NCBI GenBank assembly: GCA_963726455.1
Contig: CAVSCK010000004.1
Coordinates: 1-64,000 of the forward strand
Length of the DNA: 64,000 bases
Origin: an uncultured bacterium
GTDB lineage: Bacteria > Zixibacteria > MSB-5A5 > CAIYYT01
Reading direction: 5' to 3'
Part shown: piece after piece, positions 1-60,311 of the stretch
How positions within the stretch are numbered: the stretch's first letter is position 1
Layout: each line of letters opens with the position of its first letter
Notes under the pieces: model-generated
Seen by the model: only the letters and a program-made list of their open reading frames with translations
What the model was told of the DNA's origin: nothing
Database searches by the model: none
Translations under genes and position numbers: made by a program

Positions 1-2214
1 ATTCCCGCGCAGTCGCCGGGAACGGTGATTCAGTATTACATGCGGGCGCATGCATACAACGGCAAAGCCGACACGACGGAAATCTTTTCGTTCCGGGGTG
101 ATCGATTACGCGGCGATTTTGACGCCGCCGATATCGACAGGTTCCCGGTGCGGTCGGTGACACGGTCTGGTATGGATTGAATTGCCAGAACGATGGACTA
201 TACGACGACGCGTTCAATCTGACCGTCGGCCCGTCGCAATGGCCAACGACGATCTGGGACAATGCGGAGACCGCGGAGATAACGGCAACATCGATTTTGG
301 CTGCGGGGGCGAGTTACCCGTTCAAAGTGCGGGTGATTGTGGGACCGAGCATGTATGGCGATGTTGTACGGCTTCGTGTTTGCCAAATCACAGGCCAACG
401 GCGCGGTTCAGGTGTCGGCATCGGTGCGGACGACATCGGCAGGCCAGCCGATAACGCTGCCGTTCGCTGATAATTTTCTGACGCAGACGGTGGATATTGG
501 TTTGTGGGTTTACAATAACGGTGTCACAATCGACGCCCTGGCGCTGAATCCGCCAACCCCGCCATATGCGCTGCGGCTCAACGGAAGTCCAACCGGCGCG
601 GATACGATTATGTCGCAGGCGATCAACTTGAATGTCGCCCAGGGTGTGAATCTCAGTTATTACTACGAACAGACCGGCGGCGGTGAGGCGCCCGATGCCG
701 GTGACGATCTGTTCATAGAGTATCTCAACGATCAAGGACAGTGGAAATTGCTGAATCAGCATCTCGGAGCTGATCCTGACATGGCCAACTTCGCCATGGT
801 GTCAATGGGCCTGCCGGCGGATGCCTATCATGCGGCGTTCCGGCTGCGGCTGCGCAATACCGCCACGGTGGGCGCGTACGATGACTGGTTCGTGGATAAC
901 ATTCGCATCGACTACGGCCCGAATATCTCCGTGACGCAAACGGGATTCAGCAAGAACGTACCGCAGGGAGACTCGGCATACGATCATCTGATCATCAACA
1001 ATGTCGGGCTCGGCGGATTAACGTATTCGCTGTCGGTGGTACCGGATCTGTCGCCCGCGATGCGGTTGTTCGATCAGTTGGTGCAGCAGGGCCGGGTCAA
1101 TCATTACAGTTTCCCGGACGGCTGGAATGATTATCAGCAAGTCAAGGGCGATGAAACGGTGCGCCTCGGACCGGAAGCGGTTTACAACGCCGGTGGTCCG
1201 GATGGATTCGGGTACATGTGGATTGACTCCGATGAACCGGGCGGCCCGACATTCAGTTGGGTAGAGATTGAAGGAACCGGCACTGATATAACAACGGGAC
1301 TGGCAGATGACAACGTGATCGGACCGTTCCCGATCGGATTTGCATTCCCGTACTATGATTCCACGTACGCGGAATTTTACGTCGGATCGAACGGCTTGAT
1401 CGGATTCGGGCCGAATGCCAACTACTCATCGCTCGGAAATGTGGCGCTGCCGAGTAACGTCAGTACGGTGCCGAAGAACATCATTGCCTGGTGCTGGGAT
1501 GACCTGAACATAACCGATCCGGACAGCCCGGGCGGCAAGGTGTTGTATCAGATGGTCGGCAGTGATTTGGTGATCGAGTTTGCACGCTATCCGGAATACG
1601 ACGCGCTGACAAATCCCGGTGATATTATCACGGCGGAGATCATACTGTCGCCGAACGGTAATATCAAGTTGCAGTACCTGACGATTGCGGCGGGCTTCGA
1701 TATTCTCGGCAATACGGTTGGTTTCCAAAACAGACAGGGGACAATGGGCCTGACCGCGGCGATCAACACCGGCTACCTGCACCAGAATCTCGCGATACAG
1801 ATCGAGAAGCCGAAGGTGTGGTTGTTCACCGATCCGGTATCGGGTGAAATTCCGGGGAGCCAGACGGGGACGATCGATCTGATCTTCTCGGGAGTCGATC
1901 TTGACACCGGCACGTATAAAGCCAATCTCAAAATCTACTCCAACGATCCCGATTCGATCGACCAGGTGTTGACATTACCGGTGCAGATGAAGGTCGGACC
2001 GCCGTGGACGTGTGGTGATGCATCGGGCGATGACGTGGTAGACATATCGGATGCGGTGGCACTGATTGCTTACATTTTCAGCGGTGGCCCGCCGCCATCG
2101 CCTTTAGAAGCGGGTGACGCCAGTTGCGACGGAAACGTTGATATCAGCGACGCGGTGTATTTGATCGCCTATATTTTCTCAGGCGGTCCGGTGCCGTGCG
2201 CGACATGTAAATAG
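1..2214 (+). CDS. Secreted multidomain protein with C-terminal dockerin-like domain (5' partial; frameshifts in first ~370 nt)
   Basis: ORF 337..2214 ends in CGDASGDDVVDISDAVALIAYIFSGGPPP..GDASCDGNVDISDAVYLIAYIFSGGPVPCATCK. Plausible coding sequence continues upstream in other frames (frame 1 IPAQSPGTVIQYYMRA; ORF 177..470), implying frameshifts near ~95, ~160 and ~365. Also contains GGPDGFGYMWIDSDEPGGP and SNDPD motifs. Confidence 0.8.
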
Positions 2215-2240
2215 CGGTCCGTAAGGATCATTGTTGATGT

Positions 2241-2273
2241 AACAGGGGCGACCCAACGGGTCGCCCCTGTTTT
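2241..2273 (+). terminator. Rho-independent terminator
   Basis: Perfect stem AACAGGGGCGACCC-AAC-GGGTCGCCCCTGTT followed by T tract, 26 nt after the stop codon. Confidence 0.8.
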
Positions 2274-2350
2274 GTTGTGACCGATTTTGTCGCGCGAGGT
2301 GCGTGATGTAACGGGGATCAGGCACAGGTGTCTTCATGATCGTCATGATT

Positions 2351-2688
2351 TGTAGCCCACCCAGAGGCTTCCGTCGGGTGGGTTTTTCATTCGACTGCCG
2401 CAGCGTCTATTTCGAGAAGAGCGTTCTTGCCAGACGTGTAATAGCCAATTCTCGACCATTGCCCGTCAGCCGCCAGCCGCACCAGTCCCCGCCGGACGAG
2501 ATTGTTGTGACGATCGAATCCCACCCGTCGGAAGCCTTTGGGTGGGGTACAAGTTGACGAAACTGGCGAGACCGTCATGATCATAGTGCTTGAGCTTCAT
2601 TCGATGGGTATACTAGGGACACGGGTTTCAGACAGCAACGAAAGAACCCACCCGACGGAAGCCTTTGGGTGGGGTACAAGTTGACGAA
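2351..2688. repeat. Three REP-like palindromes (GTAG/GTAC + CCCACCC..GGGTGGG hairpin)
   Basis: TGTAGCCCACCCAGAGGCTTCCGTCGGGTGGG at 2351-2382. Opposite-orientation copies at 2520-2561 and 2647-2688 are a 42-mer pair with one mismatch. Confidence 0.8.
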
Positions 2689-4014
2689 GGTACAGACTCA
2701 TCAGATGGGTGACAGATTAGACTCATCACATAGGTAACAGTTATACTGCGTCGCGAATAAGGAGGTGACGCAGTGTGCTGGAAGGAGACTTGTGTGATGG
2801 ATGAGCGACTGAAATTTGTCGCGGAGTATTTGCGGGGAGATCGATCGGTGACGGCATTGTGTCGAACGTTTGGGATTAGTCGGAAGACCGGATACAAGAC
2901 GATCAGCCGTTATGCGGACGAGGGTTTGCAGGGGTTATTTAACCGTTCGCGAGCGCCGCACCAGCAGGCCAACGTCGTTAGCGACGAGGTATTTGGTGCG
3001 ATTGTGGGAGCGCGACGGCAGCATCCGCACTGGGGACCGCGCAAGCTTCTGGCCTGGCTGGAGCGGGAAGAACCGCGGACCGAGTGGCCGGTGGCGAGTA
3101 CGATTGGTCGGATACTGGTGCGTCAGGGACTGATAGTACCGCGCCGTCGTTCGCGGCACAGCCCGCCGTACACGGAGCCTTTCCAAGCTTGTGACCGACC
3201 TAATGCGGTGTGGTGTGCGGATCTGAAGGGTTGGTTTCACACCGCCGACGGCAGTCGCTGTGAACCGCTCACGGTTACCGATGCCTACAGCCGCTACTTG
3301 CTGCGCTGTCAGTCCTTACCGCGTGTTACCCATACTTATGTGCGACCGCTTTTCGAACATCTGTTTCGCGAGTATGGCCTGCCCTGGGCGATCCGCACTG
3401 ATAACGGTGCTCCCTTTGCCACCACGGCAGTTGCCGGCCTATCGCGGTTGGCGGTGTGGTGGATCAGACTCGGTATTGTTCCCGAACGAATCGCGCCAGG
3501 ACACCCCGAACAAAATGGCCGCCACGAACGCTTCCATCGCACCTTGAAGGAAGAGACGGTCACGCCTCCCAAAGGCTCGCTGGTCGAGCAGCAGGTCGCG
3601 TTTGATTGTTTTCGCGAACAGTATAACTGGGATCGTCCCCATGAAGCTTTGGCGGGACAAACGCCCGCCACCTTGTATCGGCCCTCGCTGCGACCTTATC
3701 CAGCACGGCTGCCGGAGATGACCTATCCCGAGCACCTGCAGGTGCGGCGAGTTCGCCCCAGGGGGAGTATCCGTTGGCAAGGAAGTGAATTGTTTATCAG
3801 CGAGGCACTCATCGGTGAACCCGTCGCCTTGGAACAGATCAGTGACCACCTGTTTCAAATCTATTACGGGCCGGTGCTGTTGACCACTTACGATGAGAAA
3901 AAAGCTAAGTTGTTGCGGCCGTCGGCCGCAACAAGAGAGGAACATTGACACCGATAACTTAAAGTGTTACCTATGTGATCGGTCTATTCTGTTACCTATG
4001 TGTCGGAACGCACA
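2689..4014 (+). mobile_element. IS481-family insertion sequence
   Basis: Transposase flanked by imperfect inverted ends, each with two copies of a CACATAGGTAACA-like motif (2702-2739 and 3965-4002). The right end finishes in ACA (4012-4014). No clear target-site duplication. Confidence 0.85.
2773..3948 (+). CDS. IS481-family DDE transposase
   Basis: MCWKET..N-terminal HTH (FGISRKTGYK), WGPRKL, rve core W.ADLKG..DAYSRY..TDNG.PF..QNGRHERFHRTLK; RBS AGGAGG. Confidence 0.93.
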   Translation: MCWKETCVMDERLKFVAEYLRGDRSVTALCRTFGISRKTGYKTISRYADEGLQGLFNRSRAPHQQANVVSDEVFGAIVGARRQHPHWGPRKLLAWLEREEPRTEWPVASTIGRILVRQGLIVPRRRSRHSPPYTEPFQACDRPNAVWCADLKGWFHTADGSRCEPLTVTDAYSRYLLRCQSLPRVTHTYVRPLFEHLFREYGLPWAIRTDNGAPFATTAVAGLSRLAVWWIRLGIVPERIAPGHPEQNGRHERFHRTLKEETVTPPKGSLVEQQVAFDCFREQYNWDRPHEALAGQTPATLYRPSLRPYPARLPEMTYPEHLQVRRVRPRGSIRWQGSELFISEALIGEPVALEQISDHLFQIYYGPVLLTTYDEKKAKLLRPSAATREEH

Positions 4015-8314: not shown

Positions 8315-8374
8315 GGCGGCCAACTCTTTTCAGTGTAAAACGGAATGGAGCCGCGTTGTCGGCCGATAATGATT

Positions 8375-21697: not shown

Positions 21698-22227
21698 TGT
21701 TTGCAGAACAAGCACTTTTACGAAGCATAAGCCTCAAAAACCAAGATCTCGCATTTGGTAACGTTGGATTTTATCCGCGTCAAATCAAAGCAGAGATGGT
21801 CATTCTTAATCCTTTTCTACCAAATCTCATTTTTCATTTACTTGTCGTTGATTACTAACTTGTTGTCTTCTACAGATCGAGGAGGTGAAATCGCTTAGGG
21901 CGGTTCACGTTTAGATAAAGAAACCTAGACAATTATCGTGTACGACCCATTTGGGGAAAACTAAAGTATCAATTCGGTTCGCCGAATACGATAAGGTAGT
22001 TAACCCCTGACTCCAGATTAGGAATCAGTAAGAACGTAGTTGGCCTGTGATCCTAATACCCTAGACAAGTTGAACGGATCTGCGCCGGCTTGAGTAGTTC
22101 CCGGGAGCTACGCCAGACTACATGATCTGTCGCGGCAGACGGGAGCGGAATGCTGACGTGTCCAAGTCGAGATGGCTTGGAGAGGTTGACTACAAACGTT
22201 ATTTCCTAAGTGTTAAGGAGGAAGTAC

Positions 22228-25200
22228 ATGTTCAAAAAACTTTTGGTAGCTGTGCTCGCACTTACCATTATCATTGGTTTGTTTAGTCCAGCTTTGGCTA
22301 CCAAGAACCCCAACGAAGCCAAGCGGCTATTGCACCAGCAATTGCCTCCGGGACCAGCACGCCAGTTAAGTGGCTATGCAACTCATGAATTTGGTCCCTA
22401 CACAGGCCATGCTAGTAAAGTAGTTGCTCCGTCGAACACCAGAGTTCCGAACGTGGGCCCCTGCACTGATTATTCTTATAATGGTGCGGCCTGGTACAGA
22501 ATTACCGGTGGCGATTACGGCGCGGCTGTCCGCTTTACTCCTGCGGGAACATGCACTCTGAAAACCGTCAGCATGCTATTTGATCCAACTGGAACAGGTA
22601 CTGTCGGTATCACCGTGTATGTCTGGCAGGATGGTGGTGGAGTTCCTGGTAGTGTAGCTTTTTCGCAATTGATTGACCCGACGGCAATGCAGTTCAATCC
22701 GAACTTTTTGACTGTAGATGTCTCCGCGTCAAATCTGATATTCAACAGCGACTATTTTGTCGGCTGGGTGATGAACAGCTCGGATACCCTGGTTTCCAAC
22801 TGGCAGGGAATGTCCGACGATGGTTCAGCCGGCGCCGGCCGCTCGTTCATTAAGAACGGTATTGCCGGTCCCTGGGTGGACAATGGGACAGCTTTTGGTC
22901 TTGACATCAACTGGGTAATCGTCGCCAACGCCTGCTGCGGAGCTGCTCCGGGCGGCGGTTGCGAAAGCAACGTCTATAATGGCGCTGTGTATTATCGCTG
23001 GGGTGGCAAGTACGTAAGAGCAGTCCGCTTTAGCGCTGCTAACGAGTGCTCCATCAAGACGGTGACGCTCGGATTCTCAAGCGGCGGCCAGGTGGGAACC
23101 GGTGGTGTCGATCTGTTGTTCTTCGCGGACAACGGCGGCCTTCCGGGCACCCTGCTCGGCACACAGCACATTCCCCATACGTCGATGGTTATTCCGGGCA
23201 ACACGGTTGTTGACGTTTCCGCCAACAATTGGATTGCAGGTAGTGACTATCACCTTGGTGTGAAGATCACCAATTGGCAAACGGACGATTATCAACTTCG
23301 TTCGGACGATGGTTTAACTGGAACCGGACGCTCCTCGGAATTGGATACTACGTATCTGCTTCCCGGCGCGACCTGGACCCTTACCCAAGTACTTTATGCT
23401 TCATACGGACTGGACCCGAACTTCATCATTACGGATTCAGTTTGCTGTTCGTCGCTGCCTCCGGTGTGCAGCAACGAGAGCTATCATGGCGGCGCCGCCT
23501 ACTTCTGGCCGTTGCCTGATGCGTACGGAGATGATTTCTTCAACATGAGATTCTCCGCTGCCACCAAGTGCACCCTGAAGACCCTCAAACTCGGTTTCTA
23601 TGGACCGGGCACAGTGGGTAATCCGGGCGCCACGGTGTATCTGTGGAAGTCTGATGGTACGTTCCCGACCACGGTTATCAACTCCTTCCCGGTCAACCCG
23701 GTTGTTGATTTCTTCCCAGCCTTCACCGAAGTGGACGTTAGTGCTCTGAACATCATTCGTCAGGGTGACTTCCATGTCGGTTATTCTCCGATTATCAACA
23801 CCTCGGGTGACGTGTTGGCGATTCTGTCTGACGACGGTTCGACCGGCACGATGCGCGGCTCCGAAAAATACGGCGCCTCGTTCAGTCTGATGAAAGACGA
23901 CTGGGGCATCGATGCGGCATTCTTTATCGAAGTTTACAAATGCTGCCAGCCCCCGGGATATTGCGACGTGGCCGCTAATCCTGATGATCAATGGCCGACC
24001 TTTGCGCACGACTTTGCTCGTACATCAGAGTCCGGTCTGAAACTGGGTGATCTGTGCGGTATCCAGAGAGCGTGGATTTATACTCCAGCCGCCGTCCGGA
24101 ATATCGACTTCACCGCCCCAGTTATTATGAACGATCGCGTATATGTCGCATTTGCCGACAGATACGTTTGCATTAACCTGCTGACCGGCGTTGAAGTGTG
24201 GAACACGAAAGTGGCCCCGCTTTCCAGTCAGTATACTGCGATCGTCGGCTCCATGCGTACCATGCCGACTATCGAAGGCGACTTTATTTATATGCCGACC
24301 GGTTCAAGCCGTGGTATCATCAAGGCCAATCGCTTGACCGGCGACACGATCTGGGTAAGAGCTTCGGTCAGCAACCCGCTGCCGGGCACTCCCGGAACGA
24401 TTTCTTACGGCGCTAGCGTAATTCTTGGCGATGCTGTTTACTTTGGTGACAACAACGGCCAGGTCTATGCGTTGGATAAGAATACCGGCGCCAACAAGTA
24501 CTTTACGCAACTGCATGCCGATCCCCCGACCAACACGCTGCTTGGTGGGACCAACACTTCAGGCACGACTGACGGCACCCAGTTGTTCTTTAGCAGTTCA
24601 TTTGCTTCTCCGGAAGCATTCGCCATTTACGCTCTTAATCCGGGCGTTGGCGGATTCACCCAGAACTGGGTTTACACTTCGCCGTTGGCTGGCGTCTGGG
24701 GTAACCAGATGCTTGCGGCGCAGAGTTTCCGTTGCGACAACCTGTTCTTGAACACGTATGCCGGAACGTATTACAGCAGCACCAGCTTGTATAAGGGCTT
24801 CCGCCAGAACCTTGACCCGTTGACCGGTATTGAAAAATGGCCGGATTATTATCTGATGGGTCAGGCCTGGTCGGCTCCGCCGGCTACCATCGGTGGTTAC
24901 ACACCGTTGGCGGTGTTTGCTAACCTTAACAACGGTAGCTCGGGTTCCGCCAATACCCGTGCGGTCCGTGCGGTCAACTTCTCTAACAGCACCGTGTGGA
25001 TCAATCCGGGTACGGCTGGTATCTATGACAATGATGTATTCCTTCATGTGTCAACGACCCAGGATCCGTATGTTATTTACGGCACTTACGATCAGTCTGC
25101 TGGTGACGGCCATCTGTATTTTGTCGATGGCAACTCCGGTAACATGCTGATCGACTACTCGATGCTGGGCGCGTTTGTAGAAGGTTCTGCGATTGCGAAG

Positions 25201-27099
25201 GGATCCGACGGCAAGCCGTGGATCGTGACTTCGATTCGTAACACCAACTACACAGCCTCCACGGGCAAGCTCATCGCGTTCTCGGACATGGGTCCGCGTC
25301 CGCGCATGATCGTGCCTGAACTCGCGGTCGTATTCGCGTCCACGAATACCAGTGAAGCGGCTCCGATTCAGAGAACCCACTCCAGTGCTCTGTTGAACAT
25401 TGGTTGTGCTCCTCTGACCTTCACCGGTACGATGGAAGCCGGTGCTCCTCCGAAAGCTCGGCTCACCAGCGTGAGTCCGTTCGCTCAGAAGAACGCGACT
25501 CAGCTTGCCAGCAGACTCGTCGACTACAGAGTCGAGGATCTGGTGACGAGACAAGAACGTTCAAGCGTTGGTAAGATGTTCGAGAATTCCTTTACCCAGG
25601 ATGAAAACGGATTGTTCGTTTCGAACGCGCTGTCCGTCAAGCCAGCCGATGCCAATTCGTCACGTCTTGCTCCTCCGTCATGGGTGAGCTGGGTGACTCC
25701 GGCAAGCGGTACGGGCGCAGTTCCGGGTGCGAGTGCTCAGGACTTCACGTTCCAATTTGACCGTACGGGTATGCAGCTTCTGGGAGTTAACTACTACTAC
25801 GTAGATATCTTCTCGAACGATCCTGACTACTCAGTTCTGGATATGACGCAGCCGGCAATACAGGCGGAAATCTATTATGAACTTCCGTACGTGTACTGCG
25901 ACTACGATTCAGGCCGTATGGCATTTGGCACAACCGGCAGTGAATGGTACAACAACGCAGGCAGATTCGGTGATGCAACCGTAACGTTCGGATTCACTCT
26001 GGACGGTTCTTCCGACGGCGCTTTTCTCTATGGTGGTTCGATGTTCTTCATGACCAACATGGACAACGCTGCTTGGAATCCGTTTGGATCGAGCGTACCG
26101 GCCAACTTCGGCTACCTGTTTGGTTTCTACCTGTCCGGCACCGATTGCGGTGGCTGCCAGTTTAACACCACGCTTCCTGTCGAATACACAATTAACGGCG
26201 GCGTTAGCTATGCTAACCTCACCGGTGATCTTTGCTCGTTTGCGGTTATTGATTCGGGTCAGAGCTTGGGCTTCTGGGCGCATCAGGCCGGCCCGTCCAT
26301 GGGCATTTTGGTCAAGTACAGAGAAGTCGGTGCTTATGGTCCTGATTTCGGCGCCTTCAAGTTAGTGGTTGCCGACATCATCAACCGTAACGCTACACCG
26401 CTTGACGGACTGTATTACGGTAACTTCGAGGATTGGGACGTTGGATCCGGCGCCAACAATGGTAGCGCCGATATGGATAAGGGCATCGTTTACTTGAACG
26501 AAGGTCCTGTCATTCGTGGTCAGATTGGTCTGCCGCTGAAGGGTTCATACTGGCCCGACGGTACGAAGACTGATCCGGCTTACAACGTTCAAATCAATGC
26601 GAACGCCGATGTAGTCTATCCGTCAGCTCCGTGCCCGGAATGCTTGCTTGACAGCTTGTATGCATACATCGATGAACATGCGGAAGGCGCCGTGACTTAC
26701 ACCCCGGGTGCAAGTGCTTCTGGTGCTGCCGATGACTTGTCGTACGAAGTCGCGTTTGGTAAGGTTAACCTTGCCGGTGGCGCGACCAAGACGTACGGCT
26801 TCGCGATGTACGGATTTGACAACGCGACTTCGCCGATGGCTGAGTCCGAGACGTTGTCCAAGTTCATCAACAAGTACGCCGGCTTTGGCCGTGGCGACAT
26901 CGATAACAACGACGTTATTGATCTGCGCGATCTGGTTCGCTTGCAGAGATACCTCCACTCCGGTGGTGCCGGCCCCGTGCCGTTCAAACACCTGGGTGAT
27001 GTAAACAATGATGGTCTCGTGAACGATGCTGACTGCACTTATATGGCCGCGTTCTTCTTCACGGGCGGTCCTGCCCCGAGAGGCGCGTTCAAGTTCTAA
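22228..27099 (+). CDS. Giant secreted protein: 3 Cys-linked beta-rich repeats, PQQ-like beta-propeller, Ig-like region, C-terminal dockerin-like domain
   Basis: RBS AAGGAGG, signal peptide, three ~160-aa repeats each ending in CC, WPTFAHDFARTS followed by propeller blades, C-terminal GDIDNNDVIDLRD..GDVNNDGLVNDAD. Confidence 0.88.
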   Translation: MFKKLLVAVLALTIIIGLFSPALATKNPNEAKRLLHQQLPPGPARQLSGYATHEFGPYTGHASKVVAPSNTRVPNVGPCTDYSYNGAAWYRITGGDYGAAVRFTPAGTCTLKTVSMLFDPTGTGTVGITVYVWQDGGGVPGSVAFSQLIDPTAMQFNPNFLTVDVSASNLIFNSDYFVGWVMNSSDTLVSNWQGMSDDGSAGAGRSFIKNGIAGPWVDNGTAFGLDINWVIVANACCGAAPGGGCESNVYNGAVYYRWGGKYVRAVRFSAANECSIKTVTLGFSSGGQVGTGGVDLLFFADNGGLPGTLLGTQHIPHTSMVIPGNTVVDVSANNWIAGSDYHLGVKITNWQTDDYQLRSDDGLTGTGRSSELDTTYLLPGATWTLTQVLYASYGLDPNFIITDSVCCSSLPPVCSNESYHGGAAYFWPLPDAYGDDFFNMRFSAATKCTLKTLKLGFYGPGTVGNPGATVYLWKSDGTFPTTVINSFPVNPVVDFFPAFTEVDVSALNIIRQGDFHVGYSPIINTSGDVLAILSDDGSTGTMRGSEKYGASFSLMKDDWGIDAAFFIEVYKCCQPPGYCDVAANPDDQWPTFAHDFARTSESGLKLGDLCGIQRAWIYTPAAVRNIDFTAPVIMNDRVYVAFADRYVCINLLTGVEVWNTKVAPLSSQYTAIVGSMRTMPTIEGDFIYMPTGSSRGIIKANRLTGDTIWVRASVSNPLPGTPGTISYGASVILGDAVYFGDNNGQVYALDKNTGANKYFTQLHADPPTNTLLGGTNTSGTTDGTQLFFSSSFASPEAFAIYALNPGVGGFTQNWVYTSPLAGVWGNQMLAAQSFRCDNLFLNTYAGTYYSSTSLYKGFRQNLDPLTGIEKWPDYYLMGQAWSAPPATIGGYTPLAVFANLNNGSSGSANTRAVRAVNFSNSTVWINPGTAGIYDNDVFLHVSTTQDPYVIYGTYDQSAGDGHLYFVDGNSGNMLIDYSMLGAFVEGSAIAKGSDGKPWIVTSIRNTNYTASTGKLIAFSDMGPRPRMIVPELAVVFASTNTSEAAPIQRTHSSALLNIGCAPLTFTGTMEAGAPPKARLTSVSPFAQKNATQLASRLVDYRVEDLVTRQERSSVGKMFENSFTQDENGLFVSNALSVKPADANSSRLAPPSWVSWVTPASGTGAVPGASAQDFTFQFDRTGMQLLGVNYYYVDIFSNDPDYSVLDMTQPAIQAEIYYELPYVYCDYDSGRMAFGTTGSEWYNNAGRFGDATVTFGFTLDGSSDGAFLYGGSMFFMTNMDNAAWNPFGSSVPANFGYLFGFYLSGTDCGGCQFNTTLPVEYTINGGVSYANLTGDLCSFAVIDSGQSLGFWAHQAGPSMGILVKYREVGAYGPDFGAFKLVVADIINRNATPLDGLYYGNFEDWDVGSGANNGSADMDKGIVYLNEGPVIRGQIGLPLKGSYWPDGTKTDPAYNVQINANADVVYPSAPCPECLLDSLYAYIDEHAEGAVTYTPGASASGAADDLSYEVAFGKVNLAGGATKTYGFAMYGFDNATSPMAESETLSKFINKYAGFGRGDIDNNDVIDLRDLVRLQRYLHSGGAGPVPFKHLGDVNNDGLVNDADCTYMAAFFFTGGPAPRGAFKF

Positions 27100-42644: not shown

Positions 42645-44507
42645 TTATTTCAACAGGACCATCTTTCTGCTTTCCACGAAGTCTATACCTGACACCTCCA
42701 ATCTGTAAAAGTAAACACCACTGGCGACCGGCAGCCCTGCGTCATTATCCCCCATCCAGTAAGCCGTGTGCCGCCCCGGATATTGCCTCTCGTCTATCAG
42801 TGTCTTGGTCTGCTGTCCCAGAGCGTTGTAGACGATCAGCTTTATCGGCGTCGGCTGCGCACCGAGATTTGGGAGTGCATACACTAATGCTGTGACTGCA
42901 TTAAAAGGGTTCGGATAGTTCTGTTCCAGTTCAGGTCGTCGTGGCATTTGAGCCGTTCCGATGTCTTGGACGTCCGTGACAAGAAACTCAACTGCGGTAG
43001 CCGGCGGTGAAACCAGAGCCGAACTGTCTACTGCCACGACCGTATAGTAGTAGTCCTGCGGTACAACCATTCCTGAGTCAGTGAACCAGAAGCGGGTCGT
43101 GTCCATCCCCGTCCAGTTGAAAATTGAATCTACTCGATGAGGCACGTAGCCGATCACGTGAGCGCTATCCAAAGGGATTGAAGCTCCTTCAGAACGAAAG
43201 ACCGCGTAGTACCTTACATCGGCCTCAGTGTTGGGGAACCAGCTAAGAGTCACTGATGTTCGTGTGGCCGTGCCGGCAAAGTCCCTCGGCGTGGAAGGTG
43301 GATAATCCTGGTAAATATAGAACGATCCCCCCGGACCTCCGAAGGCTCCCATATCCGAGCGACTGCCATCAACGTCAAGAATCCAGGGCGCTCCGGCATC
43401 AATGCAGGGCGAACCTGCCTGTAATTGCAGGTCGCCATTCTCAGGATCGACGTACATCGGATCCCGATACACGTTCAGCCAAAGCGAGTCGATTTGAATT
43501 GTGTCCCAGTCGACCGCGATGAAATCCTCGTTGTGGAAGGGCTTGAGAGAAGAAAAGCAGTTGTACTCGATCCGGAGGTGGCTACTGTCTGGTCCCGGTT
43601 CCCCAACCCTGATTCGCGGGCGGTAGCCGCCGAAGATGTTGTTGTATATCTCACAACTCTCCAAATACGGCATCCACATCCAGACAGCTTCGTATGGGAA
43701 ACCGTGCGCTTGCCCGGAGAAATAGAAGCTATTATTCAGGACTTTTAGCCTGGCCGCCCCTACGGTGAAGCCACCGGTGGCCCACTCGTTCTTGTAGAAG
43801 AGATTGTTCGAAACCTCCACGTTGGCATAGAATGACGTGCCATCAAACCCAGGCGACGTACCCACAAAGATGTTCTTCCGGACGATAAATGCACCCGTGC
43901 AGCCGATGAAGCTGCAACCGTAAGCCCAACCATTTGGATCATACACGGTGTTATTTTCAAACAGCAGATTTCTGCTCTCGGAAATACTGAGTCCACTAAA
44001 CACAAATGCCTCGAACCAACACGAGTTAATCTGTGCAGTTTGAGGCCTAAGGATCTCTATCCCGTCATCCTCAAAATTGGAGAACTTGCAGCCGGTGATA
44101 AAGTAACTGTCGGTGTAATGGCTGGTTGCGAATACGCCGTGCATACTCTCATTTGCGATGCAGTGGACGCCTTCCAATGAGCATGAGTCGGCCAACCTAA
44201 ATAGAGCATACACATTGATCGAGCCAATAACCGTCGTCGAATCCATCCCCTGACCACGAATCAGGACGTGTGGCTTTAAGTCTATTTGCTTGGAGAGGTG
44301 GTATTGCCCGGAGGCAATCAAGACCGTATCACCCGGGGAAGCCAGGTCGTTTGCCATTTCGATGAACCAGGCTGCCGTTTCCCAGGAAGTGTAGGGAGCA
44401 ATGGAGGTACCCGATGTAGAAACGTAGCAGATTGTGGCGTAACTGGGAACAGACCATCCCAAGACTAAAAGCAGGAGGCAGCCAAACCGCAATCGCCGAA
44501 AAGACAT
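42645..44507 (-). CDS. Secreted right-handed beta-helix protein with FN3 domain and T9SS type-A/FlgD-like C-terminal domain
   Basis: Signal peptide, A.PGDTVLIASG.Y, beta-helix coils, DP.YVD..GD..LQAGSPCIDAG..DGSRSDMGAFGGP, QNYPNPFN..ASGVYFYRL..KMVLLK. Confidence 0.9.
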   Translation of the reverse strand: MSFRRLRFGCLLLLVLGWSVPSYATICYVSTSGTSIAPYTSWETAAWFIEMANDLASPGDTVLIASGQYHLSKQIDLKPHVLIRGQGMDSTTVIGSINVYALFRLADSCSLEGVHCIANESMHGVFATSHYTDSYFITGCKFSNFEDDGIEILRPQTAQINSCWFEAFVFSGLSISESRNLLFENNTVYDPNGWAYGCSFIGCTGAFIVRKNIFVGTSPGFDGTSFYANVEVSNNLFYKNEWATGGFTVGAARLKVLNNSFYFSGQAHGFPYEAVWMWMPYLESCEIYNNIFGGYRPRIRVGEPGPDSSHLRIEYNCFSSLKPFHNEDFIAVDWDTIQIDSLWLNVYRDPMYVDPENGDLQLQAGSPCIDAGAPWILDVDGSRSDMGAFGGPGGSFYIYQDYPPSTPRDFAGTATRTSVTLSWFPNTEADVRYYAVFRSEGASIPLDSAHVIGYVPHRVDSIFNWTGMDTTRFWFTDSGMVVPQDYYYTVVAVDSSALVSPPATAVEFLVTDVQDIGTAQMPRRPELEQNYPNPFNAVTALVYALPNLGAQPTPIKLIVYNALGQQTKTLIDERQYPGRHTAYWMGDNDAGLPVASGVYFYRLEVSGIDFVESRKMVLLK

Positions 44508-47642: not shown

Positions 47643-47858
47643 ACTAAACGAGCGCTTGATTAATGAGCACTATTTCATTATTATACATGGGGTTATCATA
47701 ACGGTGGCCGGCTTTTCGGTTGGAGAACTGAGAAGACTCTTCGAGCATAAGAGTCCACTGCTATTGATGGCCGGATTTGTCCCGAGGAAAAGCTTTTCAC
47801 ACCGTAATGGTCTGATCAGCACCAAATCAGAAAGTTGCTTTCATTGAAAGGTACCAAT

Positions 47859-49931
47859 ATGTCGGGAAGTTCGCTAACGCGTCAGCTACTTTTCGTAGTT
47901 ATCGCCGTCGCTTTTATGGCCTCCATTTCCTACGGGGCGGGCAAAGTTGCCTACCGGGTTGAGAAGGGAAGCACCACAGCAACGGCATCAATTACTTCCC
48001 CCGAAGAAATCAATCGGGTTCCACATCCGATTTCGACAAACAAGCCGATGCGGAAGAACCACAAGCCACCAATGGTTCCGCCGGCGGACAAGGTTGCGCA
48101 GATTGTTTGGGAAACGTACGATCCTGCCAATCCGCGGCACCTGCTCGACAAAGCAGATACTGAGTTGGGCAAGGCGCTGTCGACGATGGAGCCATGCCAG
48201 AGCTTCACGGGCGTGACGAATACCGGCTGGAATCCACCCGATCCGCATGTCGCAGTAGGGCCGAGTCATGTAGTCGTCGTGGTAAACAGTTCGATCGGTA
48301 TTTTCGATCGTACCACAGGGCAACAACTACTGCAGAGTACGAGCGCATTCTGGTTTCAGAATACTGTTCCGGCGCCTGCCAGCGGGTTCATTTATGACCC
48401 AAAGGTTTTCTATGATCCGGTTGCCGGGAGATTCGTGATTCTTTATTTGTGTACTGACGATGTCTCGAAGGCGCAGTATCTCATATCAGCATCACAAAGT
48501 TCAAACGCTATGGGGAACTGGTACAGCTACGCATTGGATGCGGGACGCGACGGCGATCAGCCGACCAACAACTGGGCGGACTATCCCGGTCTGGGATTTG
48601 ACTACAATGGCGCCGTTTACGTCACTTCGAACCAGTGGCTATTCAACGGCGGGTATCAGTATGCCAAAGTTCGTGTCATTCCCAAGAGCCAGTTATACGG
48701 CGGCGGACCCGTGTCGTATACTGATCTCTGGAATCTGACATACGAAGACGGCTCAGTTGCCTTCACCGTCAAGCCGGCATCGACGTACTCCGACGCCAAC
48801 GGCGAATTTCTCATCAGCAACATCTGGTATGGCAGCAATTACACAACGTATTGGAAAATTACCTATCCTGCGGGCAATCCTGGAGCGCCAGTCTTGACGC
48901 GCAGGCCGCAAGTAAATCTGACGACTTACTATCCGGCTTCGCCAACGATGCAGCAGCAGGGTGGAAGTCCGGTTGGGTCATTGGGCGCTATGACACAGGA
49001 TGTCGCCTACCGTAACGGAATGGTATACACTTCGTTTGACGAGGGATTCAACTGGGGATCGGGCCAGGTCGCGGCGATTCGCGTTCTGGGTATCGATACG
49101 GTTACGTCAGTTGCAGACGTCGACAAGGTTTTTGGTTCCGATCAGAAATTCTACTTCTTCCCGAACATCTATATCGATCCGACTAACAAGATCTATCTGG
49201 TCTACAACCGGTCGGCGAGCAACGAGTGGATCGCCGTTCGCTACGTCGAGGATCTCCTGAATGATAATACCAGCCGTGTGTTGAAGGCGGGTGAGGGACC
49301 GCACAGCGGCGGCTCGCCGGTACGTTGGGGAGACTACGCCGGAATCGTCCCTGATCCGCTCGATCAAAACCGCGCCTGGATTTGCAGCGAGTACAGTCCG
49401 GCATCGCTGAACAGTTGGAGCACCTGGGTGGGAGAAATACCATCCAAGATTTCCAAGCCGGTGCTGGCAATGCCTGCTGATGGCGCGCGAGTTACCGTGC
49501 CAGTTTCGTTGACCTGGGATCAAGCCGCATCTGCGACAACCTACTTCCTGCAGGTTGACGACGATTCGACCTTCGCTACTCCGAAGATCGAAGTGGTAGT
49601 CAATACGAACAATTATTCTGCCAGTGCGCTGGATGACCGCACTCACTACTATTGGCGCGTCAAGGGTAACACAGTCTGTCCGTCGAATGAGTGGTCATTG
49701 CGGCGGTCATTTGGAACCTGCAGCTATGTATCGGGGGATGCCAACGGCAGTGGAACTGTCGATATCAGCGACGTCGTCTTCCTGATTAGTTACATCTTCG
49801 GTAACGGTGCGGCGCCGTCGCCGTTGTCGTCAGGAGACGCAACCTGCGATACCGCGATAGATATATCCGACGCCGTGTACCTTATCGCCTATATCTTCTC
49901 AGGAGGCCCCGCTCCGTGCAATCCATGCTAA
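47859..49931 (+). CDS. Secreted protein (PPDP..AVGP / RWGDY putative beta-propeller, FN3-like domain) with C-terminal dockerin-like domain
   Basis: Signal peptide; PPDPHVAVGPSHVV, DP.V.YD, DYP.LG, RWGDY; YYWRVK; tail GDANGSGTVDISDVVFLISYIF..GDATCDTAIDISDAVYLIAYIFSGGPAPCNPC. Confidence 0.88.
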   Translation: MSGSSLTRQLLFVVIAVAFMASISYGAGKVAYRVEKGSTTATASITSPEEINRVPHPISTNKPMRKNHKPPMVPPADKVAQIVWETYDPANPRHLLDKADTELGKALSTMEPCQSFTGVTNTGWNPPDPHVAVGPSHVVVVVNSSIGIFDRTTGQQLLQSTSAFWFQNTVPAPASGFIYDPKVFYDPVAGRFVILYLCTDDVSKAQYLISASQSSNAMGNWYSYALDAGRDGDQPTNNWADYPGLGFDYNGAVYVTSNQWLFNGGYQYAKVRVIPKSQLYGGGPVSYTDLWNLTYEDGSVAFTVKPASTYSDANGEFLISNIWYGSNYTTYWKITYPAGNPGAPVLTRRPQVNLTTYYPASPTMQQQGGSPVGSLGAMTQDVAYRNGMVYTSFDEGFNWGSGQVAAIRVLGIDTVTSVADVDKVFGSDQKFYFFPNIYIDPTNKIYLVYNRSASNEWIAVRYVEDLLNDNTSRVLKAGEGPHSGGSPVRWGDYAGIVPDPLDQNRAWICSEYSPASLNSWSTWVGEIPSKISKPVLAMPADGARVTVPVSLTWDQAASATTYFLQVDDDSTFATPKIEVVVNTNNYSASALDDRTHYYWRVKGNTVCPSNEWSLRRSFGTCSYVSGDANGSGTVDISDVVFLISYIFGNGAAPSPLSSGDATCDTAIDISDAVYLIAYIFSGGPAPCNPC

Positions 49932-49994
49932 TGAATAACAATCACCGTGAAACCATCGACCGCCGAATTCGCACCGGTTATAAGGAATTCATCA

Positions 49995-57489: not shown

Positions 57490-57672
57490 ATGTTACCTCA
57501 CCCTTTATCTTCTGCGAACGTATCGAACGATTCAATATAGTCCTACGAGAGCTGATTATCAAGACCATAATCGTGGAACCGGTGCGGTACGATAGCTGGC
57601 GAGATATCCATATGAAAAGACGGTTGGAGACGATCAGGCAGGCGATCGCATCCGCAGCTTAGAAAGTCCTAC

Positions 57673-57706
57673 AAAAAAAGAGAGCGGGTGGCTTAGACCC
57701 GCTCTC
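57673..57706 (-). terminator. Rho-independent terminator
   Basis: Minus strand GAGAGCGGGT-loop-ACCCGCTCTC followed by T7. Confidence 0.85.
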
Positions 57707-57731
57707 CGAATGATGTATCCGTGAAGTAGGA

Positions 57732-60311
57732 TTACTTCATCAAGACCATCTTCTTGGTGTCGGTGAATGAACCGGCAGTAACTTTATAGAAGTAGATACC
57801 GCTAGCAGCATTCGACGCATCCCAAGTGACCTCTACGTGGCCAATGTTCGTTCCGTTATAGCTCTGAACCAGCTGACCATTTACGTTGTAAATGTCAATC
57901 TTCCAGTCGGTGAGACTGGCAGATCCAATCCGATCTTGGTGGTCGGGTTGAACGGGTTCGGGATGTTCTGAGACAGCGAGAACTGTGTCGGAAGCGCGGT
58001 CTTCTCAACACGAGTATTCATCAGGTTACCGTAGTAATCGGAAACCTCGACGCTGTTCAGTTCGGCTCCAGTAACAGTCAGGAGCTCGTTAGTTCCGGCC
58101 GGAATGGCATTGCTCATGTTGGTCATACCAGAGTAGACCAGGACATTGAGCTTGTCACCAACCCGGTTGGACATGACTTCCATGTTGGTATGGTTGACAA
58201 CCGTGTAGTTACCCTTAACATCGAAGGTCAAGTACAGAGCGCCGATTGTCATCGGAGCTGCTGGTCGAAATCTTGTCGCCGAAAACGCTAATGTCAGCAT
58301 TAGCAGCTATACGGAGCAAGTTTCGCGTACGGAAGAGCATCACCAACGATGATTCTCAGCAAGTACACAAGTCACCAACCGACAACGGATTGCCATCGGC
58401 ATTAACGTCGGAAGCGGCAATCGCGCCTTGACGACCTAGCGGAGTTCGGTATCGGGAAGGCGGAGATGCCATACAGGAAGTACTTGGTGTACATAACCGC
58501 ATCAGCGATTTCGTTGGCGATACCGTTCAGGTTGATATCACCACGAGCATCAATCGAGTCGGCGCAGACGATATCAATACCACCGTCGTAGAAATCAACG
58601 ACAGTATCAGGATGAGTCTTCTGTGAAGGATCGATCATACAGTTGATCGCAGGAACGATTCCCTGCCATCCGCCGATACAGCGGATCGTGACCAGTAATG
58701 TCGCCTTCAGTATCGAAGCCCATCACCTGGCGAGCGATGAACAACGTGTCACCGGTGATCGACGAGAGGCCGTTGTCGCCGCAATCGAACCACGCGAAGT
58801 GGATCGGAACTTACATGCACTCAAAGGTACGGTCGTTGGTTACTAGGAATTTCAAAGTAGCCAAAGTACCATTGGTGACGTTCTGACCAAAGCAGGCCGC
58901 ATGGTGGGCACCGTTGTTCATGTCGGCAATAGCGTTCAAACGAACGAAGCCGGATGGACACGGACCACCGCAGTTGCCCTGTGCGCCAAAGCGGTAAGTG
59001 AAATACTCCCACTCGCACGTGGTCAGAATACTACCCATAGTAGCCTCGACAAAGGTCAGAGCTGATGCATCATAAGCGAGCAACAGGTCGTAACCGCCGA
59101 GACCTTCGGTCCAGTGCTTCAGGGTGATATCGACGAACTCATACTGTCCCTGGAGGGAAGCATGAGTCTTTTCGATCTCAACCTGGTAGGTCGGGGCAAC
59201 GTGAATATTGAACTGACAAGGAACAGTAGTGCAACCGTCAGTCACGTTGACAACAACCGTGAAGGTGCCGAGGTAGGAATCGTTTCCATACACCGTCGGC
59301 CAACTCCACACACCAGTAACCGGATCAATCGTAAACGTACCCGGGCCAGAGAAACTGACCAGGCTATACGCTAACGCTAATGGGCAATTGTCCGGATCGA
59401 CAGCAGTGACAGCGCCGTCCGCGGTCCAACCCCAGTATACGAACAATTCGGAACTGGGAGTCGGGCACTCGGTGAAGTGCGGTGCTGCAGAGGTCAAGCT
59501 GATTTCAAAATGGCACTGCGCAAATGCGCCGTACTCGTCAGTGACCTTGACATCGACTTCATGGAGACCGCAGATACCGGCAACTGCGGGCGGATCCCAT
59601 CTGTAAGCACCGGTAACGCCATCAATCTGGCCGGGACCAGTCACGATCGACCATGTGAGAGGAGCCACGCCGGTACGGCATGGCTGATCAGGATCAGTGG
59701 CCAGGAACGTCATAATTGACGATATCGCACGCATTATACAGCAACGCCTGAGTCGGGCAGTTGGTGATAGTCGGTGCGGTATTGAACACACGATAGGTAC
59801 CCGGAGTAACCGTTACCTGCGCTTCAGCAGCGCTCGTGTTGACAAACATCGTCTTGGCAATCACTGGATCCGGATCAATCATCCAATCACCGCCGTCTTC
59901 CATAACGAAAGCGCCGGTGTCACAGGACGTCGAAACCGTAAACGTAAAATTGTAAGTACCGGGAGCCATAATTACTGGCGTGCCACAGGCAAACCCGTAA
60001 ACACGGGTGGTATCTTCGGAGCCATTTCTAACCTTGGTGGTGTTAGCAACAGCGCCGGCTACCGCCGACACGTTAACTCCGGTAATGGTGCCAAAAGCGT
60101 TGGTGACGGTCGATCTGACTTTCGTCATCAGGTCGAAGGCCGCAATCTGCTCGTTGGTCACTACCTGAGCGGTAATTGTCTGACCGGTCTTATTATACGG
60201 AAAACTTGCATTTTGGTAAGTTACCGTTACAGCCGCGAATATTGAGCTAAACGAGAACAGAAGCATTGTGAACGTCAGCAAATAAAGTAACGAACGATCT
60301 TTTTGCCTCAT
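57732..60311 (-). CDS. Scaffoldin-like secreted protein: cohesin-like, 2 cadherin/Ig-like, cohesin-like, dockerin-like, T9SS CTD (interrupted by several indels and one TAA; sequencing error or pseudogene)
   Basis: Fragments 59694..60311, 58811..59791, 58402..58638, 57881..58300 and a last frame ending ASGIYFYKVTAGSFTDTKKMVLMK-stop at 57732. Motifs: GGYDLLLAYDASALTF (cohesin-like), RGDINLNG..EIADAV and SDVNADG (dockerin-like), QNxPNPFNP (T9SS CTD). Confidence 0.8.

Follow-up and report, generated by a model that had tools for sequence, protein, structure and literature searches.

Dockerin-tailed genes in the window

The window, that is, the whole stretch of 64,000 nucleotides analysed here from an uncultured member of the Zixibacteria, carries four genes ending in a dockerin, a gene with a T9SS CTD-like tail and a disrupted gene that combines cohesin, dockerin and CTD. 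The first five, with the dockerins, are:

1..2214, plus strand: S8 subtilase-dockerin gene, second copy, partial (listed ORF 337-2214; dockerin 2011-2211, Dockerin_1 32.2 bits)
22210..27099, plus strand: 1629-aa secreted protein with a PQQ-like beta-propeller region (PQQ_2 43.4 bits, Dockerin_1 28.8 bits)
26893-27096, plus strand: C-terminal dockerin of the propeller protein, divergent, without cysteine staples
31858..33705, minus strand: 615-aa secreted protein of the Porphyromonas-type peptidyl-arginine/agmatine deiminase family (PAD_porph 106.3 bits)
31861-32063, minus strand: C-terminal, four-cysteine dockerin of the deiminase (Dockerin_1 20.7 bits by hmmscan, below the Pfam cut-off of 22.9 bits; 25.6 bits in the genome search)
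42645..44507, minus strand: 620-aa right-handed beta-helix protein, intact, with a T9SS CTD-like tail (Beta_helix 44.3 bits)
47835..49931, plus strand: secreted protein of 698 aa whose N-terminal region belongs to no known family (Dockerin_1 26.5 bits)
49735-49928, plus strand: C-terminal dockerin of the 698-aa protein, putatively stapled

The sequence-only reading of this DNA had placed dockerins at four C-termini, and all four are present: Dockerin_1 matched them in hmmscan and again in a genome-wide search (37.0, 30.3, 25.6 and 31.5 bits at 2014-2175, 26893-27042, 31897-32058 and 49734-49895 of contig C4). Translations and alignment also bear out the near-invariant duplicated module, closed by CxxC, that had been described for three of the tails (those of ORF 337-2214, the deiminase and the 698-aa protein); the fourth, at 26893-27096, is divergent and has no such cysteine pattern. 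Judged by eye, the N-termini of the propeller protein, the 698-aa protein and the deiminase (from an internal Met) resemble signal peptides, as had been proposed. The public gene call for the deiminase is 615 aa, consistent with a start at that internal Met, and the continuation of its ORF to 33852 is probably an upstream extension of the 615-aa gene. The deiminase and the beta-propeller, both named earlier as cargo, were recovered as PAD_porph and PQQ_2 matches; the former has a conserved ortholog family whose named members are Zixibacteria, and in the 698-aa protein no significant Pfam family was found besides Dockerin_1.

The first gene needs a correction, since its dockerin is real but the gene itself is a truncated duplicate of a 1270-aa subtilase-dockerin gene on contig C3 (signal peptide, Peptidase_S8 94.8 bits, Dockerin_1 32.7 bits). 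Positions 1-4014 of the window are an inverted copy of C3:4431-8442 (99.65% identity, 14 differing positions) in which the contig start cuts the gene off, and four of the differences from the C3 copy, indels at window positions 95, 144, 366 and 372, lie upstream of or inside the start of the ORF.

A disrupted cohesin-dockerin-CTD gene

The remaining gene was pieced together from its ORF fragments and intact orthologs (module boundaries are approximate):

57732..60311, minus strand: disrupted gene with signal peptide, Ig-like region, cohesin, dockerin, short cohesin-like module and T9SS CTD
~58640-59185, minus strand: cohesin
~58330-58560, minus strand: internal dockerin
~57985-58300, minus strand: short cohesin-like module
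~57735-57965, minus strand: CTD
near 59710, minus strand: lesion, frame change
58811-58813, minus strand: lesion, in-frame TAA produced by a base substitution (Tyr in orthologs)
near 58633, 58436, 58369, 58304, 58251 and 57920, minus strand: lesions, frame-changing indels placed against an intact copy from the same genus

Orthologs of 864-887 aa are intact in six relatives, and tblastn with one of them (870 aa) matched the window in frames 3, 1, 2, 3, 1 and 3. The window copy is split into ORF pieces of 205, 326, 78, 48 and 139 aa and others by about seven frame-changing indels and the TAA; its CTD fragment scores 39.7 bits and its cohesin 17.8 bits, below the cut-off. Fold matching was done on an intact ortholog, not on the window copy. 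Model 1 (pLDDT 84.8) has the cohesin fold on which the sequence-only reading depended, matching type I cohesins (5nrm_A: Z 16.5, rmsd 1.8, 136/141 residues), with a cohesin in every Foldseek row shown. Model 2 (pLDDT 91.2) matched a dockerin (4fl4_A: Z 10.6, rmsd 1.8, 67/68, a score within the range that common helical arrangements can yield for this helical module), a cohesin (6kgc_A: Z 10.7, 107/144 residues) and a T9SS CTD (8qb1_A: Z 9.6, 76/88 residues). As modelled, then, the architecture of the ortholog family is cohesin, dockerin, short cohesin-like module and T9SS CTD.

The first three modules form a conserved block of ~480 aa directly before the CTD. Homologs of this cassette number at least 1265 at E <= 1e-5; among the 120 listed, nearly all carry PF18962 and one has a subtilisin in its N-terminal part, which varies and otherwise includes Ig/PKD repeats. 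With one full cohesin, a second short one and a dockerin of its own, the gene is of the anchor or adaptor type and is not a multi-cohesin scaffoldin. The architecture claimed for it thus stands on the intact orthologs, and so does the union of cohesin and CTD in one protein; the idea of a working scaffoldin in this window does not, as the window copy is not one open frame. As assembled the gene is inactivated, and therefore incapable of acting here.

The frameshifts might instead be assembly errors, with the gene intact in the organism and encoding a working anchor. There are other indel-type defects in the assembly: the essential ddl gene lies in two different frames (a 228-aa ORF holds only its C-terminal domain), a response-regulator/GAF/HD gene appears split, and the 4-kb repeat differs between its two copies by six indels. 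We nevertheless think this explanation unlikely, given some seven frame-changing indels in 2.6 kb, several of them outside homopolymer runs, against about two suspected in the remaining 61 kb of the window, a further lesion that is a base substitution, and the 39 other CTD matches of the genome, which sit in ORFs of 160-1969 aa. In the public reads, only two runs held ~5% of the sampled words, covering short pieces.

Dockerins, cohesins and secretion genes across the genome

A genome-wide HMM count, suggested by the sequence-only reading, gave 122 dockerin ORFs, 40 T9SS CTD matches and 13 intact cohesin ORFs. Dockerin_1 had 129 matches in the 3.64-Mb genome, 127 of them placed in these 122 ORFs, and in 113 of the 122 the dockerin lies no more than 20 aa from the C-terminus; in about 116 proteins a type-I-like dockerin ends within ~12 residues of it. 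With 122 such ORFs in 3.64 Mb, 2.1 are expected per 64 kb, so the four seen here are no enrichment for this genome (Poisson P(>=4) = 0.17; at least four occur in 15 of the 58 bins of 64 kb). The window randomly samples a trait spread over the genome and is not the locus of a special system.

Four cysteine columns (58, 78, 89 and 56% Cys) stand out when the 116 C-terminal tails are reduced to a consensus. All four are occupied in 51 tails, only C2 and C3 in 30, only C1 and C3 in 12, only C2 and C4 in 4, and none in 7; the cysteine number is even in 104 of the 116, as expected for disulfide pairs, a pattern that suggests one or two disulfide staples in most dockerin tails. By a crude signal-peptide heuristic, 88 of the 116 dockerin ORFs are positive, against 592 of 1451 background ORFs.

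The earlier suggestion that the cargo is not cellulases gains support from a random draw of 60 of the 116 C-terminal-dockerin ORFs: these are mainly peptidases (among them Peptidase_S8 (6), M14 (2), M1 (2), Reprolysin_3 (2), M43 (2), C10 (1) and M6 (1)), beta-propellers, beta-helices and Ig-like proteins. Propeller, Ig and TSP_3 families are numerous in the sample, and none of the 25 families shown for it is a glycoside hydrolase. The dockerin-tailed proteins had also been said to lack a T9SS CTD, and the two tails are indeed nearly exclusive (a Pfam CTD in 2 of the 122 dockerin ORFs).

Pfam finds 12 weak cohesin matches in the whole genome, four of them above cut-off, and an HMM built from the cassette cohesin finds 11 ORFs; their union is the 13 intact ORFs, eight with a CTD (two by the cassette HMM only), four with a dockerin and two standing alone. 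Cohesins therefore concentrate on CTD proteins, and at C5:151.5-159.7 kb three cohesin-CTD genes follow one another (Cohesin 50.3 and 45.1 bits). Core T9SS genes are present (SprA 636 bits, PorU 721 bits; the best PorV match is 88 bits against a cut-off of 250). The beta-helix protein of the window is ordinary T9SS cargo between dockerin genes: its tail scores 23.7 bits against the CTD part of PorU and 84.6 bits against that of the cassette HMM, and Pfam Por_Secre_tail did not reach E 0.05 on it. Dockerins and SprA are phylum-wide, Dockerin_1 occurring in 119 and SprA in 120 of the 121 genomes of our phylum sample.

A proposed display system

On balance we favor, with some reserve, a genome- and phylum-wide display system in which CTD-anchored cohesins are putative docking posts for dockerin-tagged exoproteins. 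SprA would export the CTD proteins, PorU would attach them to the surface of the outer membrane, and their cohesins would then bind dockerin-tagged enzymes in a Ca-dependent manner. The cargo would be the ~116 Sec-exported proteins; of the ~13 intact cohesin proteins, the eight with a CTD would supply the posts. The outcome may be a cell-bound exoproteome aimed at protein-rich detritus, not cellulose, to which the window would contribute four cargo genes (one a truncated subtilase duplicate) and one inactivated gene of the anchor/adaptor type.

Counting against this model are the 13 cohesin ORFs to 122 dockerin ORFs, the sub-threshold Pfam scores of most cohesin matches, the low PorV score and the broken anchor gene of the window itself.

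The dockerins could also be Ca-binding, disulfide-locked modules for stability or adhesion, or binders of polysaccharide or of a non-cohesin protein, like the many non-cellulosomal dockerins without a matched cohesin. The imbalance in numbers and the poor Pfam detection of cohesins would suit this, as would two genomes of the phylum sample with SprA and no dockerin, which make the traits separable. Against it, the cohesin folds are real as judged by the structure-model matches, the surface-anchoring CTD is on 8 of the 13 cohesin ORFs, and the tails are nearly invariant on unrelated cargo (mean column identity 70%), as expected if they had one receptor in common. In cellulosomes, too, many dockerin enzymes are served by few cohesin proteins, and we regard a function other than docking as improbable.

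The way to the surface also counts against the model: the dockerin proteins bear no recognised signal for outer-membrane export, and a search of this genome for canonical GspD-type secretins gave none, turning up no more than a PilQ within a pilMNOPQ cluster and a secretin remnant of 126 aa. The surface location of the dockerin proteins is therefore an assumption. They might fold and be stapled in the periplasm, dock on CTD carriers and cross through the T9SS as complexes, or, in a variant, the dockerin tail might itself be a sorting signal. The near-exclusivity of the two tails speaks for such a route, as do the absence of GspD above the curated cut-off in all 121 phylum-sample genomes (where only short secretin matches of ~200 bits occur) and one deiminase homolog, among the 120 listed, that has a CTD instead of a dockerin, which makes the tags interchangeable on one enzyme family. 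The T9SS does transport folded proteins (PMC9251779); piggy-back transport, however, appears in that review as a feature of Tat and of peroxisomes and not of T9SS. With T2SSE/T2SSF genes here and two short secretins (~430-450 aa) in many relatives, the proteins may instead take a T2SS-like or pilus-type route, and the near-universality of SprA in the phylum deprives its co-occurrence with dockerins of any weight. We give export as complexes, or by a sorting tail, little credence.

Comparison with known systems

The proposed display system shares its two folds with the type I pairs of clostridial cellulosomes (1OHZ, 5NRM, 2CCL, 3UL4), in which dockerins are likewise duplicated Ca-loop/helix modules at the C-termini of secreted enzymes, and cohesins are carried by cell-anchored non-catalytic proteins, few in comparison with the dockerin proteins. 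It differs in its diderm host, in an anchor that is a T9SS CTD and not an SLH domain or sortase signal, in sampled cargo of mainly peptidases, propellers and Ig-like proteins, in the two or four conserved cysteines of most dockerins, and in cohesins that are larger (~210 aa), Cys-rich and mostly below the Pfam cut-off; the pairing here is putative.

As in Bacteroidota T9SS display, known from Porphyromonas gingivalis, a Sec signal peptide is combined with a folded C-terminal beta-sandwich CTD (PMC9251779). The SprA translocon and PorU sortase are present here as well, and, as in P. gingivalis, a PAD_porph-family deiminase is among the exoproteins. The P. gingivalis deiminase is CTD cargo; here, in contrast, a dockerin takes the place of the CTD on the deiminase and on most other exoenzymes, and the CTD is reserved for ~40 proteins, cohesin carriers included.

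The general concept is already published for Cloacimonadota: PMC8542988 predicts for Candidatus Stygibacter a cellulosome-like complex with a CTD-anchored cohesin scaffoldin and dockerin-tagged peptidases, and proposes that it breaks down both polypeptides and polysaccharides. In the literature searched, no publication mentions both Zixibacteria and dockerin, or both Zixibacteria and T9SS. By the account in PMC8542988 that organism, too, is an FCB-group diderm known from MAGs, with signal-peptide enzymes that end in dockerins (S8 and C25 peptidases included) and a cohesin protein whose CTD serves surface attachment. What that account gives, however, is a single 3755-aa scaffoldin with tandem cohesins and CBMs, and a handful of named dockerin enzymes, whereas here, in a different phylum, ~13 small cohesin proteins with one or two cohesins each face ~120 dockerin proteins, the dockerins appear cysteine-stapled, and there is a conserved cohesin-dockerin-cohesin-CTD cassette family. 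With cohesin and dockerin on one polypeptide, this family resembles adaptor and anchoring scaffoldins; unlike them, it sets the cohesin-dockerin-short cohesin block directly before a T9SS CTD, behind N-terminal parts that vary.

Dockerin-tailed proteins of the window

Four proteins encoded in the window end in a type I dockerin (Dockerin_1, Pfam PF00404, curated cut-off 22.9 bits), as the sequence-only reading had claimed of these C-terminal modules; dockerin scores are given for hmmscan and for the whole-genome search, in that order.

337-2214 (+): P0001, partial subtilase copy; 32.2 and 37.0 bits
22210-27099 (+): P0002, PQQ-like beta-propeller (43.4 bits); 28.8 and 30.3 bits
31858-33852 (-): P0003, PAD_porph deiminase (106.3 bits); 20.7 (below cut-off) and 25.6 bits
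47835-49931 (+): P0004, 698-aa protein with no recognised Pfam family besides the dockerin; 26.5 and 31.5 bits

Three of the four tails pass the cut-off in hmmscan and all four do so in the genome search. Tandem Ca-loop and helix segments of ~22 residues (GDAxxDGxVDISDAVYLIxYIF) are visible in the translations, in the alignment of the tails (A2) and in a consensus of 116 tails from the genome. The further claim of a nearly invariant duplicated module closing in CxxC is borne out by the alignment for P0001, P0003 and P0004; the P0002 dockerin is divergent and lacks that cysteine pattern. Signal peptides had been read wherever an N-terminus is visible, and the starts of P0002, P0003 (from an internal Met; the public gene call, P0126, has 615 aa) and P0004 do read as such. 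A search of the four proteins against NCBIfam returned no C-terminal sorting-domain family, only sub-threshold BamB-like and agmatine deiminase matches. The 698-aa dockerin gene is followed, 16 bases 3', by a prolyl oligopeptidase gene (S9, 373.7 bits; 49947-52121, +) with neither dockerin nor T9SS sorting domain (CTD), and the two may be co-transcribed.

The first of these genes kept its dockerin tail on closer inspection and lost its standing as a whole gene. Positions 1-4014 of the window, which carry its 3' part, are an inverted copy (99.65% identical) of C3:4431-8442, near the start of another contig of the same assembly; the two 4-kb copies have 14 differences, indels accounting for 6. 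The protein encoded by the C3 copy is 1270 aa long and has a signal peptide, a Peptidase_S8 domain (94.8 bits) and a dockerin tail identical to that of P0001. Since the C3 copy is intact and the repeat lies at the very start of the window's contig, the missing N-terminus of P0001 is an effect of the contig edge and of duplication. An IS481-family transposase gene (2773-3948) lies inside the repeat, which could be due either to IS-mediated duplication or to one locus assembled at two contig ends.

Dockerins, cohesins and cargo across the genome

The 3.64-Mb genome yields 129 Dockerin_1 matches, 40 Por_Secre_tail (CTD) matches and 12 weak Pfam Cohesin matches, 4 of the latter over cut-off. All but two of the dockerin matches (127/129) and all but one of the CTD matches (39/40) could be placed in ORFs, the unplaced CTD being the window's own. 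The genome-wide comparison of tails that the sequence-only reading had called for thus sets 122 ORFs with a dockerin against 40 CTD matches. In 113 of these ORFs no more than 20 aa separate the dockerin from the C-terminus, and a Pfam CTD occurs together with the dockerin in only 2. With four dockerin genes in the window against 2.1 expected (P = 0.17), the system is a dispersed, genome-wide trait and not a locus.

The consensus of 116 tails has four cysteine columns. All four are occupied in 51/116 tails, C2 and C3 in 30/116, C1 and C3 in 12/116, C2 and C4 in 4/116, and none in 7/116; the dominance of even numbers suggests that most tails are held by one or two disulfide “staples,” with C2-C3 and C1-C4 as the putative pairs, judging from co-occurrence.

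Cargo was surveyed in a random 60 of the 116 ORFs with C-terminal dockerins, the four window genes having been excluded before the draw. Peptidases include S8 (6), M14 (2), M1 (2), Reprolysin_3 (2), M43 (2), C10 (1) and M6 (1); propellers are represented by FG-GAP, LVIVD, SBBP, Sortilin, BNR and NHL; and beta-helix (3), TSP_3 (7) and He_PIG (7) proteins also occur. No glycoside hydrolase is found among the 25 families listed of the 43 in this sample. The window also encodes an intact 620-aa beta-helix protein (42645-44507, -) with a CTD-like tail that scores 84.6 bits against our own CTD HMM and 23.7 bits against the CTD part of PorU, and that Pfam Por_Secre_tail misses at E 0.05.

On the cohesin side, Pfam and an HMM of the cassette cohesin together give 13 intact ORFs: 8 with a CTD (2 of these calls resting on our own HMM only), 4 with a dockerin and 2 alone. 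The best candidate for a core locus in this genome is a cluster of three consecutive cohesin-CTD genes at C5:151.5-159.7 kb (locus L011, C5:150500-160500), after which a dockerin-tagged gene follows:

C5 cluster, 759 aa: two Pfam cohesin stretches, dockerin and CTD
C5 cluster, 821 aa: two Pfam cohesin stretches and CTD
C5 cluster, 923 aa: cassette type (cohesin, dockerin, short cohesin, CTD)
C5:159926-160885: dockerin-tagged gene

It is unlikely, in our estimate, that the dockerins work without cohesin partners. An uncontrolled complex prediction was made for the dockerin tail of P0003 (A2) and the cohesin (residues 1-218 of alignment A3) from the most similar unbroken paralog in the genome. 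Its scores, 0.07 and 0.02, fall short of the 0.32 mark and speak neither for nor against binding.

A conserved cohesin-dockerin-CTD family and its broken copy in the window

A fifth window gene (57732-60311, -) had been read as combining cohesin-like domains, a dockerin-like module of its own and a T9SS CTD. The domain architecture held, by way of an intact 870-aa ortholog (P0005) on which the fold tests were done in place of the broken window copy; the notion of one gene did not. Sequence profiles detect little of it: the window piece 58811-59791 scores 17.8 and 17.6 bits against Pfam Cohesin (PF00963), under the curated cut-off of 24.1 bits, and in P0005 there is no Cohesin match at E <= 1, Pfam detecting the CTD only (37.3 bits, residues 795-867 of 870). 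By the standard of a PF18962 or TIGR04183 type domain at the extreme C-terminus (cut-off 27 bits), the window's fragment is also a CTD (39.7 bits, profile positions 18-74), with its N-terminal part in another frame.

In the predicted structures, residues 1-213 of model 1 (ortholog residues 385-700; pLDDT 84.8, pTM 0.67) take the nine-stranded jelly-roll fold of a type I cohesin, with 5nrm_A as the best match (Z 16.5, rmsd 1.8, 136/141 residues) and with all of the top Foldseek rows listed being cohesins (E 1e-8), so that the scaffold domains do not lack a cohesin fold, the outcome that would have told against the sequence-only reading. In model 2 (residues 600-870; pLDDT 91.2, pTM 0.69), Foldseek on the three domains together gave generic tandem Ig-like matches of poor rmsd, and the parts were resolved by a domain-wise VIA search. 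The dockerin part matches 4fl4_A (Z 10.6, rmsd 1.8, 67/68 residues) and 2ccl_B (Z 10.4, 62/62), helical matches, which may be generic at Z values under about 13; the call of an internal dockerin is supported by two Ca-loop motifs in the sequence, and phmmer against PDB sequences gave only E 0.5, to the dockerin 3ul4_B. The short cohesin-like sandwich matches 6kgc_A (Z 10.7, 107/144 residues) and 2xdh_A (Z 10.6), and the CTD matches that of mirolase (8qb1_A, Z 9.6, 76/88) and 8glk_D (Z 8.7, 75/75).

The family therefore combines one complete cohesin, a second and shorter cohesin-like module, and a dockerin of its own. For comparison, a scaffoldin in the cellulosome sense gathers several cohesins on a non-catalytic protein and recruits the dockerins of enzymes. 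Homologs of the cohesin-dockerin block number at least 1265 proteins at E <= 1e-5, joined to varied N-terminal parts; of the 120 listed, almost every one has PF18962 and every one with a name comes from Zixibacteria. Judging by this homology, the block forms a large conserved family. An additional HMM (“idoc”) was set aside for its insertion columns, which came from tandem-cassette proteins.

In the window itself, the gene is split into pieces of 205, 326, 78, 48 and 139 aa and more. These are 66-67% identical to the intact ortholog, which in tblastn runs through frames 3, 1, 2, 3, 1 and 3, that is, at least five frame changes where a single open frame would have none. In six relatives of the sister genus the gene forms one ORF, 864-887 aa long, with ~70% nucleotide identity from end to end, and the 3' part is unbroken in one genome of the host's own genus. 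Compared with that copy, the 3' 1.07 kb carries six frame-changing indels (near 58633, 58436, 58369, 58304, 58251 and 57920) and two in-frame deletions; the reading frame also changes near 59710, and the first cohesin is interrupted at 58811-58813 by an in-frame TAA in place of the Tyr of the orthologs.

These lesions could be due either to real decay of the gene or to errors of assembly. The load is about 7 indels and a substitution-type stop in 2.6 kb, against about 2 suspected in the other 61 kb, and the remaining 39 CTD matches of the genome sit in ORFs of 160-1969 aa; on both grounds we favor real decay with good confidence. That the gene is really intact in the organism seems to us rather improbable, and what speaks for it is that the assembly does have indel problems, as in ddl, split between two frames, and in an apparently split response-regulator/GAF/HD gene. 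In the former (D-Ala-D-Ala ligase; 11349-12385, -), the Dala_Dala_lig_C part lies in a 228-aa ORF and the N-terminal part in the other frame; a frameshift in so essential a gene suggests some indel errors in the assembly. In the latter, a response-regulator ORF (30288-30890, -) overlaps a GAF/HD ORF (29360-30361, -) whose GAF match begins only at profile position 64-65, and a frameshift seems to have divided a single RR-GAF-HD gene at 29360-30890. Among public metagenome runs, only two contain about 5% of the words sampled from 57500-60500; the contigs of these two match short conserved pieces at 85-95% likeness, and no public run spans the fifth gene.

Secretion machinery and export route

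Both the translocon and the sortase of the T9SS are present in the host, with SprA at 636 bits summed (cut-off 200) and PorU at 720.8 bits (cut-off 420). The best PorV-like match, at 88 bits, stays under the cut-off of 250. It lies, with a second of 65 bits (also below cut-off), in a 1076-aa ORF directly adjoining PorU (C3:164629-171041); this ORF may encode a PorV-type protein that is fused or of unusual length.

With this machinery, the most likely arrangement, which we hold with moderate confidence, is that proteins with both cohesin and CTD serve as “docking posts” for dockerin-tagged enzymes. The domains, predicted folds, counts and machinery genes that make up its base are observed. From these we infer that the T9SS would export the CTD-bearing cohesin proteins and anchor them on the cell surface, where their cohesins would bind, presumably in a Ca-dependent manner, the dockerins of Sec-exported enzymes whose tails are stapled by putative disulfides.

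How the enzymes themselves leave the cell is a question that these counts raise, with ~120 proteins without CTD in a diderm where searches turned up no canonical type II secretin. The genome has only two secretin matches, PilQ in a pilMNOPQ cluster (also the one Secretin_N match) and a 126-aa remnant beside T2SSE and T2SSF genes. The 126-aa ORF (locus L010, G000:C4:1806000-1825000, locus positions 8194-9724) covers no more of the Secretin domain than its final 77 positions and adjoins a divergently oriented T2SSE/T2SSF pair; it looks like a remnant left by rearrangement. A second short secretin of ~430-450 aa is frequent in relatives. Among 121 genomes of the phylum (at most 48 dockerin candidates scored in each), Dockerin_1 is found in 119/121, SprA in 120/121 and GspD above its curated cut-off in 0/121; short secretins (~430-560 aa) occur frequently, in many cases two to a genome, so that a T2SS-like or pilus-type route is a possible path for the dockerin cargo. 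Because dockerins and SprA are both near-universal, the T9SS and dockerins are inseparable within the phylum and their co-occurrence does not discriminate.

The sequence-only reading had also raised the idea that cargo might “piggy-back” across the outer membrane. The dockerin tail would then be an indirect T9SS ticket for the Sec-exported enzymes, over 100 in each genome, which would be stapled by disulfides in the periplasm, dock on the cohesins of CTD carriers (the conserved cohesin-dockerin-cohesin-CTD cassette, with its at least 1265 homologs) and pass through SprA as folded complexes. Its premise is that the enzymes lack a CTD and that a canonical T2SS is not at their disposal. In PMC9251779 the T9SS is described as a mover of folded proteins, and the piggy-back transport described there is that of Tat and peroxisomes only. 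We regard this route as improbable, and if true it would be the first such route through a T9SS. Among 120 listed homologs of the deiminase, one (P0159) has a CTD in place of the dockerin, a single case of tag replacement.

Significance and relation to known systems

Zixibacteria are widespread in sediments and soils and, to our knowledge, have never been cultured. If docking on T9SS-anchored posts is real, ~4% of Zixibacteria genes would serve a cell-bound, peptidase-rich exoproteome assembled by cohesin-dockerin pairs, which bears on the attack of detrital protein. The small, disulfide-locked dockerins and compact cohesins would also be a natural set that could serve as orthogonal assembly parts. 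Taken alone, the window is of modest value: its four cargo genes are ordinary and its anchor gene is decayed.

Our literature search (main texts, with the spelling “Zixiibacteriota” partly covered) found no publication joining Zixibacteria with dockerins or T9SS, and nothing relevant on Latescibacteria and dockerin. What appears undescribed is the scale (~4% of genes and phylum-wide), the dockerin subtype with its inferred staples, the cohesin-dockerin-cohesin-CTD cassette family and the missing canonical secretin. Non-cellulosomal cohesins and dockerins are reportedly reviewed, for all domains of life, by Peer et al. in 2009. The type I cohesin-dockerin pairs of clostridia have the same folds as those found here, and for the FCB diderm Candidatus Stygibacter a complex of dockerin-bearing peptidases and a CTD-bearing scaffoldin has already been proposed (PMC8542988). 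The observation made from the window is thus real and was well read, and the system is a variant of cohesin-dockerin systems already known.
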